Source of the DNA: Deinococcales bacterium
GTDB taxonomy: Bacteria > Deinococcota > Deinococci > Deinococcales > JAAFIG01
Length of the DNA: 64,000 bases
NCBI GenBank assembly: GCA_043778225.1
Contig: JAYWGM010000063.1
Coordinates: forward strand, 17,107 to 81,106
Reading direction: 5' to 3'
The notes under the pieces are model-generated. The model was given only the letters and a program-made list of their open reading frames with translations. It was not told where the DNA came from and searched no databases. Below are positions 23,059 through 29,682 of this stretch, in pieces. The first letter of the stretch is position 1. Each line of letters opens with the position of its first letter. The position numbers and the translations under genes were made by a program.

Positions 23059-26000
23059 TTAGACTTTAGCCAGTCCTAGTCTGCCTTCCTCGAGACTGAC
23101 CACAAAATCAGAAGATAGAGGAGAGCTAAACTCGAGAAAATCACAAAGCGTATCTTCGCGCAATGTGGCTTCCCACGCCTTAGCTGCCTCGAGCCAATCG
23201 CCGCTTAAATCTAAACGCAATGCAATACGATTAGAAACTTCGAGACCAGAATCCTTACGCCCTTGTTGCACTGCCCGTAGTAAATCTCGAGCCAAACCCT
23301 CGAGAATCAAATCCTTAGTCAGTTCCGTGGTGAATGCCACCAGCAAACCATCTTGTTCCACTGCCGCAAACCCTTCTGGCGATTTTGCATCCACCAGCAC
23401 ATCGGCAGGCTCGAGAAGAAACGCACCATCAGCAGTCTCGAGCGTAAAATTCTGGTTCTTGTTGACACTTGAAACAATCGCGCTCGAGTCGCCTTGCAGC
23501 AGCGCTTCGCGGATGGCTGGGATATTTTTGCCGTACTTGCGCCCAAGGGTTGGCAGATTTGGCTTTAAGTTGTACGAAATTAAATTTGTGCCTTCCTCGA
23601 GCAATTTTACAGTTTTAACATTGAGTTCTTCGGCAATCGTACTCGTGAAGCGTTCCAGTGCCAGATTATCGGTACTTTCTCGCGCCCTAAGCATGACTTC
23701 GGCTAATGGCTGACGCAGTTTTAGGTTTGCCTGTCCTCGAGCCGCCCGTCCTAAGTCTACGACCCGAATCACGGCTTGCATTTCGGACACCAGTTGAGCG
23801 TCAAAACGCGCTGCATTGAACTTTGGAAACTCGCACAGATGCACACTTTCTGGAGCGCTTGAATCCAAGCCAACCACCAAATTCTGATACAAACTCTCGG
23901 ACAAAAATGGCGTAAATGGCGCAGCCAATTTTGTGACCGTGACCAATGCCTCATACAAAGTTGCATAGGCACTCGAGTCCACAATTCCATCCTGAGTCCA
24001 GAAACGCCGACGATTACGGCGCACATACCAATTGCTCAGTTCATCCACAAATGCCTCGAGTGCTTTACCGCCTTTTCGCGCATCGTAATTATTCAGCGCT
24101 TCTGTAACTGTTTGCACCAGCCCTTCAAGCCTCGAGATGAGCCAACGGTCAATTTCTGGGCGAGTCTCGAGTGTGGGCGCAACCTTCAAATCTGGATTAT
24201 CGAGGTTGGCGTACAGCACAAAAAAGCTGTACACATTCCAAAGCGTATTGATAAAGCCGCGCTGTCCTTCAGCAATTAAGCGCTCCGAGAAACGCTTGGT
24301 GTCGCCCGGTTCAGAACCCGTGAACATATACCAACGCACTGAGTCCGCGCCAAATTTATCAAAGGCTGGCAGAGGCTCGACCACATTGCCTTTGGATTTG
24401 GACATTTTCGCGCCTTTTTCGTCTACCAAATGCCCGAGGCAAATCACGTTTTTATAGACTGGCTGGTCATAAAGTAGCGTTCCAATGGCGTGCAAGCTGT
24501 AAAACCACCCTCGAGTCTGGTCAATCGCCTCACAAATGTAATCGGCTGGAAAGTGCTTCTCGAAGGTATCCAAAGTTTCTTTGCTGCGAGCCACACCGTC
24601 CGCATCCAGCAGTAAATGCCACTGGGCATACGGCATTGCCCCAGAATCAAACCAGACATCCAGCACTTCTGGGACTCGAGAAAATGTCTTGCCATCTTTT
24701 ATAAAAGTGGCATCATCAATGTACGGACGGTGTAAATCCTCATTCTCGAGTTCTTTGCCCATCAGGTTCTCGAGTTCCGCCACAGAACCAACGCAAACGT
24801 AATCACGTCCATCTTCAGAAACCCAAAAAGGAAGCGGCGAACCCCAATAGCGCTCACGGCTGATGCCCCAATCGACGTTGCCCTCGAGCCATTTACCAAA
24901 GCGTCCATCCTTGATATGTTCTGGAATCCAATTGATTTCTTGGTTGGTCTCGGACATCCGCTTTGACATTTTTTCGGTGCGGATAAACCAACTTGGACGG
25001 GCAAAATATAAAATTGGGTCGCCAGTGCGGTCATGGAACGGATACCTGTGCTTGAGTGTTCCCGCGTGGTACATCAGACCGCGTTCGCGCATGGTTTTGA
25101 TGAGACCCTTATCGGCATCCTTAAAAAACTTGCCACGCTCGTCGGTCACTTGCATGATGCCGTTGCCATTTGTGCCAAAACACAAGACGCAATCGTAAGA
25201 TTTACCAACTTCTAAATCCTCTGCGCCGTAGACTGGGGCTTGGTGGGCTAAACCAGAGCCGTCTTCGTCGCCGACAAAATCGGCTAGGACGACGATGTGC
25301 GCCCTTGGGTGAGACGAGTCCGCGCCAACCGTACCCGCTTTCCGACTCGAGAATTTATCTTTATTCAAACCGAGTTCTTCAAAAACTTCGGGGAATGGCT
25401 GCTCGTACTGCCAAAAGTGCATCAGTTCGCCTTTGAAGGTGGCTAGAACCTCGAGGGGCGGGGCATCCTTATTCAGTTCTGAGATTCGAGTCACAGCATT
25501 TTTGGCAATCACGATATGACCCATTGGGCTAGAACACAGCACATACTCGAGATTTGGATTGACGGCTGCCAAAGTGTTGCTCGGCAGTGTCCAAGGTGTG
25601 GTTGTCCAAACAATCAAGGCTGGCTGCTCGAGCTTGGTTAAATCCACGCCCTGCGCCTCGAGACTTGCCCTTAAATCTTGTGGGGTGGTCTCGAGCTTGA
25701 CCGGCAGACGCACATAGACACTTGGGTCATCCACCATTTGGTAGCTGTTCTCATCGCCAAGTTCGGCTTTGGACAAGGTGCTGCCGATGCGCGGCGAAAC
25801 CGGCACAACCTTAAAATCTCGCTCGACCAAACCTTTATCCCAGAGGCGCTTGAGTAAATTCCAAACCGATTCAATGTACTCGTTTTTATAGGTCACATAG
25901 GCATTCTCGAGGTCTACCCACATCCCGAGGCGTTCGGTAAAATAATTCCAATCTAAAATGTTGCTAAAGACACTTTCACGGCACAAGCGGTTAAATTCCT

Positions 26001-26346
26001 CGAGTTCGGCGCGGCTCGAGCCATGATTGCGCCCTTTCATACCCATTTTCTTTTCGACTGCAATTTCGACAGGCAGCCCGTGGGTGTCCCAGCCGCCTTT
26101 GCGGGTCACATGAAAACCATTCATGACCTTAAAACGTGGGAAAATATCTTTGAAGGCTCGAGCCAAAACATGGTGCATGGCGGGTTGCCCGTTGGCGGTT
26201 GGCGGACCTTCGTAAAACACAAATTCGCCAGATGGGGCGGGTTTGGATTCGGTTTGACCGAAAATATCTCGAGCCTTCCAGAACTCGAGAACGCGGGCTT
26301 CGACATCTTTGTAGCTGACTTGCGGGCTGACTTCGTTAAATTTCAT
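23059..26346 (-). CDS. ileS: Isoleucyl-tRNA synthetase, type 2
   Basis: FYEGPPTANG, GWDTHGLPVE, WTTTPWTLPSN, DWGISRERYWG, KMSKS. Confidence 0.97.
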   Translation of the reverse strand: MKFNEVSPQVSYKDVEARVLEFWKARDIFGQTESKPAPSGEFVFYEGPPTANGQPAMHHVLARAFKDIFPRFKVMNGFHVTRKGGWDTHGLPVEIAVEKKMGMKGRNHGSSRAELEEFNRLCRESVFSNILDWNYFTERLGMWVDLENAYVTYKNEYIESVWNLLKRLWDKGLVERDFKVVPVSPRIGSTLSKAELGDENSYQMVDDPSVYVRLPVKLETTPQDLRASLEAQGVDLTKLEQPALIVWTTTPWTLPSNTLAAVNPNLEYVLCSSPMGHIVIAKNAVTRISELNKDAPPLEVLATFKGELMHFWQYEQPFPEVFEELGLNKDKFSSRKAGTVGADSSHPRAHIVVLADFVGDEDGSGLAHQAPVYGAEDLEVGKSYDCVLCFGTNGNGIMQVTDERGKFFKDADKGLIKTMRERGLMYHAGTLKHRYPFHDRTGDPILYFARPSWFIRTEKMSKRMSETNQEINWIPEHIKDGRFGKWLEGNVDWGISRERYWGSPLPFWVSEDGRDYVCVGSVAELENLMGKELENEDLHRPYIDDATFIKDGKTFSRVPEVLDVWFDSGAMPYAQWHLLLDADGVARSKETLDTFEKHFPADYICEAIDQTRGWFYSLHAIGTLLYDQPVYKNVICLGHLVDEKGAKMSKSKGNVVEPLPAFDKFGADSVRWYMFTGSEPGDTKRFSERLIAEGQRGFINTLWNVYSFFVLYANLDNPDLKVAPTLETRPEIDRWLISRLEGLVQTVTEALNNYDARKGGKALEAFVDELSNWYVRRNRRRFWTQDGIVDSSAYATLYEALVTVTKLAAPFTPFLSESLYQNLVVGLDSSAPESVHLCEFPKFNAARFDAQLVSEMQAVIRVVDLGRAARGQANLKLRQPLAEVMLRARESTDNLALERFTSTIAEELNVKTVKLLEEGTNLISYNLKPNLPTLGRKYGKNIPAIREALLQGDSSAIVSSVNKNQNFTLETADGAFLLEPADVLVDAKSPEGFAAVEQDGLLVAFTTELTKDLILEGLARDLLRAVQQGRKDSGLEVSNRIALRLDLSGDWLEAAKAWEATLREDTLCDFLEFSSPLSSDFVVSLEEGRLGLAKV

Positions 26347-26376
26347 AAGACCTCAGTTTGCATGAATTTGATTTTC

Positions 26377-26513
26377 GTAGGGACAGACTCCCGTGTCTGC
26401 CCTGTGAGACGATGTAATTTGGAATTTTCCTTTGAATTATTGTTTTTGTTTACCTTTTGGTTTATCTCGAGCAATGATTAGCTGGCAGGACGAACACGGG
26501 GGTTCGTCCCTAT
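26377..26513. repeat. Inverted pair of GTAG-type REP-like palindromes (REPIN-like)
   Basis: GTAGGGACAGACTCCCGTGTCTGCCCT (+, 26377-26403) and ATAGGGACGAACCCCCGTGTTCGTCCT (-, 26513-26487). Confidence 0.75.
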
Positions 26514-26590
26514 GGTTTTTTTGGTTTGAATTTTCGAGACATTGTGCATATCATTGATACAGCTATGTAAATTTGCTTTCATACTAAAAT

Positions 26591-27376
26591 CTATCCTTGA
26601 AATCCGATGTTGTTTAGGTGCTGCTCGGCAACTTGACCAAGACATAAGCGAATTGTTGTGAAGAACGGTCTCCATTGATAATCTAAATAGCGACTGATTA
26701 GGTTTAAGGTTACGTCACGGTTTGCAACTCGCCATTGTTTTTTATTGTGTTCTATATCTCTGAATATGATAAGTCGCTGTTGTGCAAGTCGGTCACAGTT
26801 TAAGTTCAGTATTTTGATGGTGTTTTCAACTAATTCAAAAACACTGGTAAACTTGTTATCCTCTAAGTTAATGGTTTTACAGTGTTGTTCATTTGGCTCG
26901 AGGAATCCATTTGTTGGATTGAACTGAAATAAACAGGGTGATGGAATTATGGTTAATGGATTGAGAATAATGCCTTCGCAGTTTTTTGGTATTTTTCCAG
27001 CTTGTTCCATATGATTTTTATGCGAATCACAACTTAAATTTTCTTCCAATGGTGATAGAAAATTGGGAAGATTGGGATTGTCACCGCCATTACAAACCCC
27101 AATCATATTTGACCAAAGCAATGCCCAGTTTAGTGCCGAATCTGACGTATCTGACTTTGCATGAAAATGTTCTACTCGAGTCGTTAATGGTTCTGACGCT
27201 GAAATCTTGCATTCACAATAGGCACAGAGACCGTATTGGTCACTAATAATTTGGGTTCTAATGTTTTTATAAACATCTTCAAAATTCCTCAAATCTTTCC
27301 AAGTGGCTTTTGGATTATTGCTTTCAAAGGCGGTTAATTCTTCTGGGGGAGTGGTATTTTTGAAAACTGGTTTCAT
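26591..27376 (-). CDS. HNH endonuclease, Septu PtuB / retron-effector HNH family
   Basis: DQYGLCAYCE...VEHFHAKS...WSNMIGVCNGG...SCDSHK...LNLNCDRL; ATGA overlap with the ATPase. Confidence 0.85.
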   Translation of the reverse strand: MKPVFKNTTPPEELTAFESNNPKATWKDLRNFEDVYKNIRTQIISDQYGLCAYCECKISASEPLTTRVEHFHAKSDTSDSALNWALLWSNMIGVCNGGDNPNLPNFLSPLEENLSCDSHKNHMEQAGKIPKNCEGIILNPLTIIPSPCLFQFNPTNGFLEPNEQHCKTINLEDNKFTSVFELVENTIKILNLNCDRLAQQRLIIFRDIEHNKKQWRVANRDVTLNLISRYLDYQWRPFFTTIRLCLGQVAEQHLNNIGFQG

Positions 27377-28728
27377 TGATTCTGCTCCCAAATTCGGTTT
27401 TCAATAAATAAATCCGCTTCGAGTAAAGCAGGTTCTTCACCCAGATAACGTTGATCTAAAATAGTTCGCAATTCGATGGCTCGAGGCGAAGCCCACTCAT
27501 TTTTGAAAACAAGTTCTTGATATTCAAGCAGTTCTCGAGTTGCCATGTTTTTCTGAGGTCTTGGGTCAACTCCAAAAATGCGTTTTAGAATCCGATTGGA
27601 CTCTGCTCCTTCCGTACCAGAAGGGGTGAAAATTTGATTATTCTCAATAACTCGAATACATTCGGCGGGAACAGTTGATAACACTTGAGGGCTGTGGGTA
27701 CTCACAATAAATTGAGTATTCGGAAAAGTACGTCGTAAATCCCCAAGAATTCGTTGCTGCCACATCGGATGCAAATGTAAATCTATTTCATCAATAATCA
27801 CAATGGCTTCTTGATGCAATGGGTTGATACCAGTAGCCTCAGATGGATTGGCTTGTGCCATCCGCAAAGATAAATCCATAGCCAGTGCCAGCATGGTGCG
27901 GAAGCCATCACTAAGTTGTCCGAGCCTAAGGGTTTTGACTTCCCCATTTTCAAGTGTTTGATCTATGACAAATTGCAAGGGTTTAAGTTTGGTACGTGGA
28001 TTTGAAAAGCTGGGCAGCATGATTCTGATTGCTTCGCGCATGACTTTCAAATCAGGTAATTCATAGTTGAAATCCCTTAGTTCGCGCTGAGCATGAAGCT
28101 CAAGCCGCTCAAGGTAATCAAAACGCTCGTAAATAGCGCGAAAATTGCTGGTTGCGCCAAACGCGCCTTCAAAAGCCTCGAAACGTCTAAATTGCTTGCG
28201 GAAGTCAGTACGGCGTTCAACCTCTGCCATAAATACCCTATTTGTACCGTAGTAACGAACCAGTGGGAGGGTGTAAGGTTTACCAGTTTTTTCTGCCTCC
28301 AGAAGACCAGAGATGAACTCATTAAAATTCTGCTTCAATTTAGCTATATCTTCTGGATTGCTAGCAGGTTTTCCTAGCTCCGCATCAAACTCAAATTGGG
28401 GATAGACTTTTTTGACACTTTTGTCTTTGACTTTAATTGCTATTAACAGTGTTGAACCTTGAGTCGGCAAATATATTGATAATGAAATTTGCGCCAAGTC
28501 TGCACTTTGTTGATTCGTACCTATCTTAATGTCATTTGTGGTCATTGCTTTGCCATCGCGCTGAATCAAACCAGTTGCCATACGACTTAGGAGAAAATTT
28601 ATTGCTTCAAGCACGGCTGTTTTTCCACCACCATTTTCAGATACAAAAACGGTTAATTTTGGATGGAACATGATCATTGCTTCTTGAAAACAACGAAAAG
28701 TTGTTAGGTTTAGAGCTACTAGTTTCAT
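27373..28728 (-). CDS. ABC/AAA ATPase, Septu PtuA / retron Ec78 PtuA-like
   Basis: ENGGGKT Walker A, LSDG signature, IIDEIDLHLHPMWQ, STHSPQ; C-term GAESNRILKRIFGVDPRP; GGAG RBS. Confidence 0.85.
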   Translation of the reverse strand: MKLVALNLTTFRCFQEAMIMFHPKLTVFVSENGGGKTAVLEAINFLLSRMATGLIQRDGKAMTTNDIKIGTNQQSADLAQISLSIYLPTQGSTLLIAIKVKDKSVKKVYPQFEFDAELGKPASNPEDIAKLKQNFNEFISGLLEAEKTGKPYTLPLVRYYGTNRVFMAEVERRTDFRKQFRRFEAFEGAFGATSNFRAIYERFDYLERLELHAQRELRDFNYELPDLKVMREAIRIMLPSFSNPRTKLKPLQFVIDQTLENGEVKTLRLGQLSDGFRTMLALAMDLSLRMAQANPSEATGINPLHQEAIVIIDEIDLHLHPMWQQRILGDLRRTFPNTQFIVSTHSPQVLSTVPAECIRVIENNQIFTPSGTEGAESNRILKRIFGVDPRPQKNMATRELLEYQELVFKNEWASPRAIELRTILDQRYLGEEPALLEADLFIENRIWEQNQ

Positions 28729-28771
28729 AAATCTCCATTATATTTTTGACTTTGCAGAATCTTGAGCAACA

Positions 28772-28808
28772 CAAAAACCCCAACAGACGCTTGTGCGTCA
28801 TGCTGGGG
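28772..28808 (-). terminator. T-box intrinsic terminator
   Basis: CCCCAGCA-TGACGC-ACAA-GCGTC-TGTTGGGG-TTTTT, mutually exclusive with the antiterminator. Confidence 0.88.
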
Positions 28809-29048
28809 CGCTAGTAATTGCGCGTTACCACCCAACTTCACTCGAGCCTTGCGGTTCTCGAGCCTTTATACCAACCATTGCGGATTGGTTTGCGCTGTAT
28901 CGGGCGCACCCGAACGGTTCTACTCGAGAATAATTCTCTTTCTTCCATCTGCTCGGAGGTGATGTTGGCTCGAGTTCGTGTCCATCGGCGCTTTCACCGT
29001 CCGCCGTTCGCTGTTGGTCGTGTCTCGAGTTACGTCCTCGTCGTTGCG
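28772..29048 (-). ncRNA. T-box riboswitch, Ile specifier (AUC), transcriptional type
   Basis: Stem I GAGG...AGCGA...GGTGAAAG...AAC-ATC-ACCTC (ATC at 28963-28961); T-box AGTTGGGTGGTAACGCG (28837-28821); antiterminator GGG-UGGUAAC-GCGC...GCGC-CCC. Confidence 0.92.
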
Positions 29049-29054
29049 GCTATC

Positions 29055-29084
29055 AGTGTACGGACTCGAGGTAGGGCGTGTCAA
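29055..29084 (-). promoter_or_regulatory. Sigma70-type promoter of the T-box leader
   Basis: TTGACA (29084-29079), 18 nt, TACACT (29060-29055). Confidence 0.8.
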
Positions 29085-29100: not shown

Positions 29101-29682
29101 ATGCGTTCCGCACCTGTAAAAACAGCTTTGTCTTTTGACCAATTTCTCGAGTTCGAGATTTCCAGTCTTGAGCGCCATGAGTTCGTGGATGGTAATCTGT
29201 TTGTTATGGCGGGTGGGACAGATAAACAAAATCATTTGATTGGCGAATTGTATATTTCGCTCAAAGCAGTGGCTCGAGCGGCTGGTTTTCGGGTTTATAT
29301 GAGTGATGTGTTAATTCGCACCCCCGACGATGTGGGTTATTACCCTGACGTTTATGTGGCTCGAGATGAAATTGGCGATTCTCCTCGGGTTAAACGTCAT
29401 CCGATTGTGATTATTGAAGTCTTGTCTTCAAGTACCGAAATTTTTGACCGTGGTGAAAAATGGCACAACTATCAGACTATTCCAAGCCTCGAGCAGTATG
29501 TCTTGTTGTCGCAGTCTGAGCCACTTGCCGAAATGTACACAAGGCAAGCCGATGGTTCGTGGCGTTATCAATCATTTTCTGGTGCGTCGGTGCTTCATTT
29601 CTCGAGCCTCAATTTTGATTTGCCGCTTGAGTCTTTGTATACAGATTTACCTGCCAACGAAAACCAATCAACTCGAGCTTAA
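29101..29682 (+). CDS. Uma2 family (DUF820) endonuclease-fold protein
   Basis: RHEFVDG, YYPDV, IIEVLSSST..DRGEK..Y..IPSLEQYVL; TAGAAT 5 nt before ATG 29101. Confidence 0.9.
   Translation: MRSAPVKTALSFDQFLEFEISSLERHEFVDGNLFVMAGGTDKQNHLIGELYISLKAVARAAGFRVYMSDVLIRTPDDVGYYPDVYVARDEIGDSPRVKRHPIVIIEVLSSSTEIFDRGEKWHNYQTIPSLEQYVLLSQSEPLAEMYTRQADGSWRYQSFSGASVLHFSSLNFDLPLESLYTDLPANENQSTRA

Follow-up and report, generated by a model that had tools for sequence, protein, structure and literature searches.

We analysed a 64,000-nt stretch of the genome of a Deinococcales bacterium (assembly GCA_043778225.1, contig JAYWGM010000063.1; hereafter the window), in which a Septu defence gene pair, ptuA and ptuB, lies between an isoleucine (Ile) T-box riboswitch and ileS, the gene for isoleucyl-tRNA synthetase (IleRS). 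The source genome, G000, is a 107-contig metagenome-assembled genome (MAG) of 4.03 Mb. Read on the minus strand from 29084 to 23059, the operon runs from a promoter through the Ile T-box, ptuA, ptuB and a spacer to ileS. A preliminary description of this DNA had listed a promoter, a full Ile T-box, an ATPase gene, a coupled HNH gene, a pair of REP-like (repetitive extragenic palindrome-like) hairpins and ileS, and every one of these elements is present. The features of the operon are the following:

29055..29084, minus strand: sigma-70-type leader promoter, TTGACA-18-TACACT, with 10/12 consensus matches
28773..29053, minus strand: Ile T-box leader (Stem I, T-box core, antiterminator, terminator), found with cmscan and RF00230
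28963-28960, minus strand: specifier AUC+A in Stem I, from the cmscan alignment
28838-28821, minus strand: T-box core AAGUUGGGUGGUAACGCG, with the UGGU bulge at 28830-28827
28808-28773, minus strand: terminator hairpin and U5, -24.2 kcal/mol
28729..28772, minus strand: junction of 43 nt from the U-tract to the ptuA ATG, with TATAAT 8 nt and GGAG 4 nt before the ATG
27373..28728, minus strand: ptuA, Septu ABC-type ATPase of 451 aa, matching PADLOC PDLC00311 (E 3e-118, positions 1-449 of 455)
26591..27376, minus strand: ptuB, HNH nuclease of 261 aa, matching PADLOC PDLC00338 (E 3e-93)
26347..26590, minus strand: 244-nt ptuB-ileS spacer with two REP-like hairpins, hairpin 1 at 26510-26488 and hairpin 2 at 26402-26380
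23059..26346, minus strand: ileS, type-2 isoleucyl-tRNA synthetase of 1095 aa, with Pfam matches to tRNA-synt_1, Anticodon_1 and DUF5915

The riboswitch was recognized with cmscan, which matched RF00230 at 29053-28801 (model positions 1-219, 60.8 bits, E 5e-12). Both its specifier and its UGGU contacts fit a cognate tRNA-Ile(GAU) with the 3' end A73-CCA that is encoded in G000, and the antiterminator is the consensus fold returned by RNAalifold for the aligned leaders of the relatives described below. In all 13 aligned leaders the ATCACC specifier, the T-box core and the TTGAC of the -35 element are invariant and the -10 element is conserved as TAnnnT, and a terminator hairpin with its U-tract is found in 14 of 14 leaders, at -18.8 to -26.5 kcal/mol. 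The leaders of G000 and of G007, another genome carrying the pair, are 87% identical, though the synonymous divergence (dS) of ileS between them is about 1.1, meaning that synonymous sites are saturated. With promoter, specifier, core and terminator conserved in this way, the riboswitch looks functional where PtuAB follows it.

The T-box leaders also yielded several incidental observations. In those of G003, G005 and G001, ~60 nt of distal Stem I, the platform for the tRNA elbow, are missing, while specifier, core and terminator are retained; this missing segment explains their low Rfam scores of 27-32 bits. The shortened Stem I recalls the ultrashort-Stem-I ileS T-boxes of actinobacteria. As a control, the glyS T-box of G000 directly abuts glyS. 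The hexamer CTCGAG, the commonest in G000 (24,877 copies in 4.03 Mb, or 6.2 per kb, about 25x expectation), occurs five times within 28780-29056 of the window, where it even forms T-box stems. G000 encodes 68 tRNAs in total; a 4.2-kb array on contig C19 (9937-14171) holds 26 tRNA genes for nearly all amino acids, including a second, atypical tRNA-Ile(GAU) with A73-CCA and a tRNA-Tyr(GUA).

The identification of the two genes behind the T-box as a Septu PtuAB pair, which the preliminary description had made from the sequence, is borne out by the PADLOC profile matches listed above. Pfam recognizes PtuA only through the generic AAA_21, SMC_N and AAA_15 families. Its motifs are intact (Walker A SENGGGKT, Walker B IIDEIDLHLHP, LSDGF and STHSPQ), and it aligns end to end with the PtuA of PDB entry 8ee4 and, over its C-terminal half, with the retron Ec83 ATPase. 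The start of ptuB overlaps the ptuA stop by 4 nt (ATGA). PtuB has no Pfam match; it matches the HNH protein of retron Ec83 with 140 bits, and the catalytic His of its VEHF motif is conserved. Among five PtuAB orthologues from related genomes, the Walker A and B motifs, the ABC signature and the H-loop of PtuA and the HNH Cys/His/Asn set of PtuB are invariant in all five, and the variation in PtuA is concentrated at residues ~60-150.

Retron effectors of this type are accompanied by a reverse transcriptase (RT) and by msDNA, a multicopy single-stranded DNA; the preliminary description had noted neither near the pair. We likewise detected no RVT_1 domain in the open reading frames (ORFs) scanned across ~12.4-43.9 kb of the window and no retron RNA among the Rfam matches. 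The sole RVT_1 match of G000 lies on another contig (C65, 9796-10242, minus strand, 49 bits, in a 454-aa frame). Since no RT is adjacent, the pair is a stand-alone Septu. By gene content it is a type I system, with a full-length PtuA profile match and an adjacent HNH PtuB, for which phage protection is predicted. Two further PtuA-like/AAA_15-type ATPase genes occur in G000 (C32:103087-103557 and C52:9758-10315), with 39-44% identity over the C-terminal part.

To place this arrangement among relatives, ileS was located in 40 of 41 related genomes and its upstream region was taken from 20, with G001 and G016 added afterwards. The family comprises 19 genomes, and the interval between T-box and ileS, which we call the slot, was readable in 14 of them; in the other five (G004, G008, G010, G012 and G014) ileS is missing or cut by contig ends. 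The contents of the readable slots are as follows:

PtuAB, 5/14: G000, G003, G005 and G007 (one genus) and G016 (a second genus)
Other cargo only, 5/14: G001, G006, G009, G013 and G018
No cargo, 4/14: G002, G011, G015 and G017

The T-box lies 85-170 nt from ileS in the four cargo-free genomes of the family and in five genomes of the wider order (G019, G025, G030, G031 and G034), and G024, G028 and G032 yielded no T-box upstream of ileS. The preliminary description had asked whether the T-box adjoins ileS in relatives and whether other genes take up the same position, and the answer on both counts is that they do.

Within this set, the close orthologues of PtuA (63-83% identity) all lie between an Ile T-box and ileS, five out of five. 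They represent five species from two genera, and each of these slots has an intact T-box. The tightest case is G016, in which the T-box is followed by 69 nt, ptuA, ptuB, 40 nt and ileS. The next nearest PtuA proteins, from GTDB species genomes and JGI metagenomes, reach at most 39% identity, and scans of genome and metagenome contigs for PtuA, which confirmed 9 and 6 loci, respectively, brought up no further close relatives. A tblastn search of plasmids with PtuA returned 127 records, none of which reached 60% identity, the best of those listed having no more than 32%; together these searches covered genomes, metagenomes and plasmids but not the phage collection.

Several features point to the pair having come from elsewhere. 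The cassette has a GC content of 39.9% vs ~50% in its flanks, which places it in the bottom 2% of G000 windows, and its four CTCGAG sites in 2138 nt compare with a genome median of 13 (again the bottom 2%) and with 0.31 expected in shuffled sequence. We tried CTCGAG density as a clock of residence time and dropped it, drawing from it only that the cassette is of foreign origin and not brand new. In the window, the cassette is bordered by neither a target-site duplication nor inverted repeats, and the best direct repeat, 33 nt at 73%, consists of two CTCGAG-containing hairpins. In G003, a 39-nt copy of the start of ileS, 97% identical, lies directly upstream of ptuA (L002 3571-3609), a region that also holds duplicated leader hairpins (L002 4046-4226). 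The junction in G003 was on this evidence made with duplication of the ileS 5' end, such that the cassette is bracketed by a duplicated gene start and ileS stays whole.

The two genes have since been under purifying selection, with ratios of nonsynonymous to synonymous divergence (dN/dS) of 0.07-0.12 for ptuA and 0.11-0.14 for ptuB, reported only for pairs with unsaturated dS. Between G000 and G007, the dS of ptuA (1.31) is similar to that of the adjacent 5' end of ileS (1.12), which fits co-divergence in place. As an alternative to a regulatory role, the preliminary description had suggested that the pair hitchhikes inside an essential operon, which would stabilise it, and its retention in five species and two genera, a dN/dS of about 0.1 and the constrained T-box agree with that suggestion.

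The spacing of the genes bears on how they are transcribed. In six of the ten cargo-bearing genomes, the first cargo ORF begins 0-16 nt past the terminator U-tract (0 nt in G003, G006 and G013, 13 nt in G007, 14 nt in G001 and 16 nt in G005), a gap that leaves no room for a promoter ahead of the cargo. At the other end, the last cargo gene is separated from ileS by 40 nt in G016, 33 nt in G018 and 9 nt in G005, and overlaps it by 4 nt in G009, as would be expected of an operon.

The longer ptuB-ileS spacer of the window was examined in the same regard. A promoter scan of its operon strand found no promoter-like site, and neither hairpin is followed by a U-tract on that strand. ileS itself has a GAGG Shine-Dalgarno sequence 4 nt upstream and is without a leaderless -10; across 13 genomes a -10 box at leaderless spacing before ileS was found in none, and a Shine-Dalgarno sequence is usually present. 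Of 13 relatives, 7 also carry hairpin 2 and an adjoining CCCTAC upstream of ileS, with compensatory changes in the stem, and as these include the cargo-free G015 and G017, hairpin 2 is a REP-like element native to the ileS leader. Wherever hairpin 2 is present, the cargo sits upstream of it. About ten short partial copies of the REP-like hairpins occur elsewhere in G000. It was also observed that the two spacer hairpins can pair together in a long-range fold (z -4.67), and that hairpin 1 on the opposite strand is followed by a T-run and resembles a terminator.

Taken together, co-transcription of ptuAB and ileS from the T-box is the best reading of these sequences, and we put at roughly two in three the probability that T-box, ptuA, ptuB and ileS have been inherited as one read-through transcription unit since an ancestral insertion of the cassette. 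By this account, a foreign, AT-rich type I Septu cassette would have inserted, in an ancestor within this Deinococcales family, into the short gap between the Ile T-box terminator and ileS, and the resulting unit would have been passed on since. When tRNA-Ile(GAU) is uncharged, its acceptor end would pair with the UGGU bulge and favour the antiterminator, allowing RNA polymerase to read through ptuA, ptuB and ileS. The dosage of PtuAB would then be set by the same feedback as that of IleRS, with a basal level assured and a rise under Ile limitation or translational stress. Once made, PtuAB would presumably function like its counterparts in other Septu systems, in which an ATP-restrained complex of ATPase and nuclease nicks DNA upon phage infection. 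On the simplest view, the cassette would persist because its embedding both assures its expression and protects it, in that a polar disruption or a sloppy deletion would starve the cell of IleRS.

A number of observations weigh against this account. The first is that the T-box of G000, at 60.8 bits, falls short of the Rfam gathering score of 93, which is why a default Rfam scan missed it. Coupled with the origin of the window in a MAG of 107 contigs, this score might suggest an artefact or relic, either an assembly chimera or a dead T-box remnant with ileS on a new promoter. We consider this very improbable. The same arrangement is found in four other independently assembled genomes, which excludes the chimera that the preliminary description had flagged as a risk; the orthologous leader of G016 scores 107.5 bits, above the gathering score; and the diagnostic T-box motifs and the terminator are intact in a leader far more conserved than synonymous sites.

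More serious are the indications that ptuA has a promoter of its own. In G000 the ptuA ATG is preceded by a perfect TATAAT, ending 8 nt before it, and in G016 by a TAGATT ending 7 nt before it, in junctions (42 nt long in the latter genome) that resemble each other by eye. The genome shows a strong signature of leaderless mRNAs, which peaks at 6-7 nt: among 2287 long-ORF starts of G000, 12.3% have a TANNNT ending 6 nt ahead of them and 6.7% one ending 7 nt ahead, over a background of ~1.7%, and in Deinococcus deserti 60% of mRNAs are described as leaderless (PMC4007540). T-box-independent transcription of ptuAB, extending into ileS, may therefore occur as well in these two genomes. Weak promoter-like sites (9/12 matches) are also present within ptuA, at no higher number than in shuffles (6 found, 5.7 expected). 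Of the two places where the preliminary description had thought an independent promoter would tell against T-box control, the one before ileS shows none that we could recognise, and the one before ptuA is occupied by the TATAAT.

One could thus propose that a leaderless promoter, either acquired with the cassette or evolved later, drives PtuAB mainly constitutively, with T-box read-through minor and the position of the genes incidental to their regulation. This we regard as somewhat unlikely, as TANNNT at the 8-nt spacing seen in G000 precedes 3.15% of starts, an enrichment of only 1.9-fold, and the GGAG Shine-Dalgarno sequence 4 nt before ptuA suggests translation from a leadered mRNA. The ptuA genes of G003, G005 and G007 are without such a box, the ATG in G005 lying only 16 nt past the U-tract. 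Furthermore, a strong constitutive promoter at this point would free ileS from T-box control, and yet the T-box is strongly constrained.

The remaining points against inheritance as one unit concern how often the linkage arose and how faithfully it was kept. Elsewhere in the phylum, four further PtuA-like genes were checked and all lie at a distance from ileS, and the linkage of PtuAB to the slot looks like a single historical event and not a recurrent one. PtuAB was not found in G001, G002 and G006, which belong to the same genus as G000; to judge from this distribution, either the cassette can be lost in spite of its embedding or it is passed between congeners. Consistent with the latter, dS between G003 and G005 is unequal (0.09 for ptuA vs 0.47 for ileS) and the PtuA and PtuB identities are mosaic, which point to some exchange among congeners.

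These same points bear on a stronger claim, raised in the preliminary description, that the arrangement is an adaptive, tRNA-charge-sensing defence in which selection keeps PtuAB behind the T-box and a drop in tRNA-Ile charging cues Septu. The placement of all five members of the PtuA clade in the slot, in two genera and under purifying selection, would be expected of such a circuit, as would the intact T-box in each of them, and some relatives of PtuAB have been tied to tRNA loss in vivo (PMC12819146). On the other side stand the apparent single origin of the linkage, with no convergent recurrence, the unrelated cargo that the same slot holds, and the three congeners in which PtuAB was not found. 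The analogy with retron Ec78 drawn in the preliminary description is weak. Its PtuAB has been linked to depletion of tRNA-Tyr in vivo (PMC12819146; see also PMC11555353), yet in the experiments described in the former it neither cleaved nor bound tRNA in vitro (PMC12819146), leaving the analogy suggestive only. According to the same source, stand-alone PtuAB forms a hexameric ATPase-HNH complex with a DNA-nicking activity that ATP inhibits (PMC12819146). We consider a circuit selected for charge sensing unlikely, and the shared read-through unit continues to be our preferred reading.

The other cargo of the slot consists largely of two orphan families, which we call X and Y. X comprises multi-pass membrane proteins of ~200 aa that are very AT-rich (25-36% GC) and Ile-rich (9.6-16% Ile), and its members were found in the slots of seven genomes:

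L003:520-1176, minus strand: X
L001:620-1219, minus strand: X
L001:4204-4803, minus strand: X
L002:651-1241, minus strand: X
L021:739-1353, minus strand: X
L004:643-1251, minus strand: X
L007:4955-5542, plus strand: X
L010:592-1185, minus strand: X

In alignment, the members have 12-25% identity to the first member, and an FFxxTLxxxPxIxxY motif is common among them. Searches of Pfam, PADLOC and PHROGs with X gave no matches, and a search of 5.8 billion proteins gave three, all from these same genomes. An AlphaFold model of X (pLDDT 74.7) retrieved no significant fold match in the PDB, the best Foldseek hit being FtsX with an E of 0.19.

Y is a family of soluble proteins of 110-140 aa, with the following members:

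L002:4361-4729, minus strand: Y
L002:3599-4018, minus strand: Y
L004:1507-1842, minus strand: Y
L006:5083-5484, plus strand: Y

In three genomes the Y ATG immediately follows the U-tract of the T-box terminator, which would place the Shine-Dalgarno sequence of Y in the 3' strand of the terminator. The G006 member of Y has no Pfam or PADLOC match, and the four members have no PHROGs match. One NUDIX hydrolase, which weakly matches the PADLOC candidate PDC-S07, is also found among the slot cargo. ORFs of 94, 95 and 151 aa in G007 and G005 were treated as spurious, since they share only short repeat-derived stretches.

The gap is on this evidence a general cargo slot in the family, with whatever it holds probably expressed by read-through. 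That the gap between a T-box and its aminoacyl-tRNA synthetase (aaRS) gene is a sheltered, tRNA-charge-responsive slot specifically for immunity genes, Septu and perhaps X and Y, is a more speculative proposal that we find unlikely.

Upstream of the operon, the left flank is conserved:

29101..29682, plus strand: divergent Uma2-family gene, Pfam Uma2 E 2e-27, ATG at 29101

This Uma2 gene is also present in G006 and G007. The rest of the neighbourhood is made up of housekeeping genes (among them GGDEF, IGPS, HAD, PGI and citrate synthase), and among the annotated neighbours in the scanned part of the window there is no integrase, transposase, RT or defence gene.

The locus joins a known defence system to a known switch in a wiring that is new and evolutionarily stable. 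Among the known controls on the level of potentially self-toxic defence systems, protein repressors and quorum or stress regulators predominate. Here a well-understood RNA switch, whose defined ligand is uncharged tRNA-Ile, stands directly before a well-studied defence pair and has stayed there through speciation. Our literature searches, which did not extend to paper supplements, turned up no Septu or other defence system described as being controlled by a T-box or riboswitch. If the proposal of a charge-responsive slot for immunity genes is correct, defence dosage would be set by a direct RNA sensor of translational stress, whether from phage hijack or starvation, and the defence could not be silenced without starving the cell of IleRS. 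The locus offers a simple system for asking whether defence dosage is tied to translational status and whether embedding in an essential operon protects accessory genes. For annotation more generally, gaps between riboswitches and their genes can serve as cargo slots, and the first gene after a T-box may not be its "real" target.

Compared with known T-boxes, the leader has the parts of canonical ileS T-boxes, namely a promoter, a Stem I with an AUC specifier, the bulge, an antiterminator/terminator and a tRNA-Ile(GAU) with A73, and Ile and Gly T-boxes are recorded for D. radiodurans (PMC2494555). It differs in that 2.4 kb of defence genes intervene, whereas the leader abuts ileS in four genomes of the family and in five order-level relatives. 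T-boxes before unexpected genes are not without precedent, as 8% of 897 T-boxes in a survey precede genes of unknown function (54) or unrelated genes (17) (PMC2494555). The present case is like the unrelated-gene T-boxes in that the first gene behind the T-box does not belong to an aaRS, biosynthesis or transport class; it is unlike them in that, as far as the account in that survey goes, its cases are not identified as defence genes or as insertions ahead of a native aaRS target (PMC2494555).

As for the gene pair, retron type I-A effectors (Ec83, Ec78/Eco7) provide the best solved-structure matches both for PtuB and for the C-terminal half of PtuA. In contrast to those systems, no RT or non-coding RNA lies nearby, and PtuA is without the extension of ~90 aa at the N-terminus, so that the retron I-A ATPase profile aligns with residues 223-449 only. 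With stand-alone Septu type I (8ee4/8ee7), the locus shares the overlapping gene pair, the 451-aa PtuA, the HNH PtuB and the lack of an adjacent RT, although its PtuB is closer to that of retron Ec83 (the 140 bits given above) than to the 8ee7 PtuB (26 bits). Unlike stand-alone Septu, the pair is found not in a defence island or mobile element but in a promoter-proximal position within an essential aaRS operon, behind a riboswitch.

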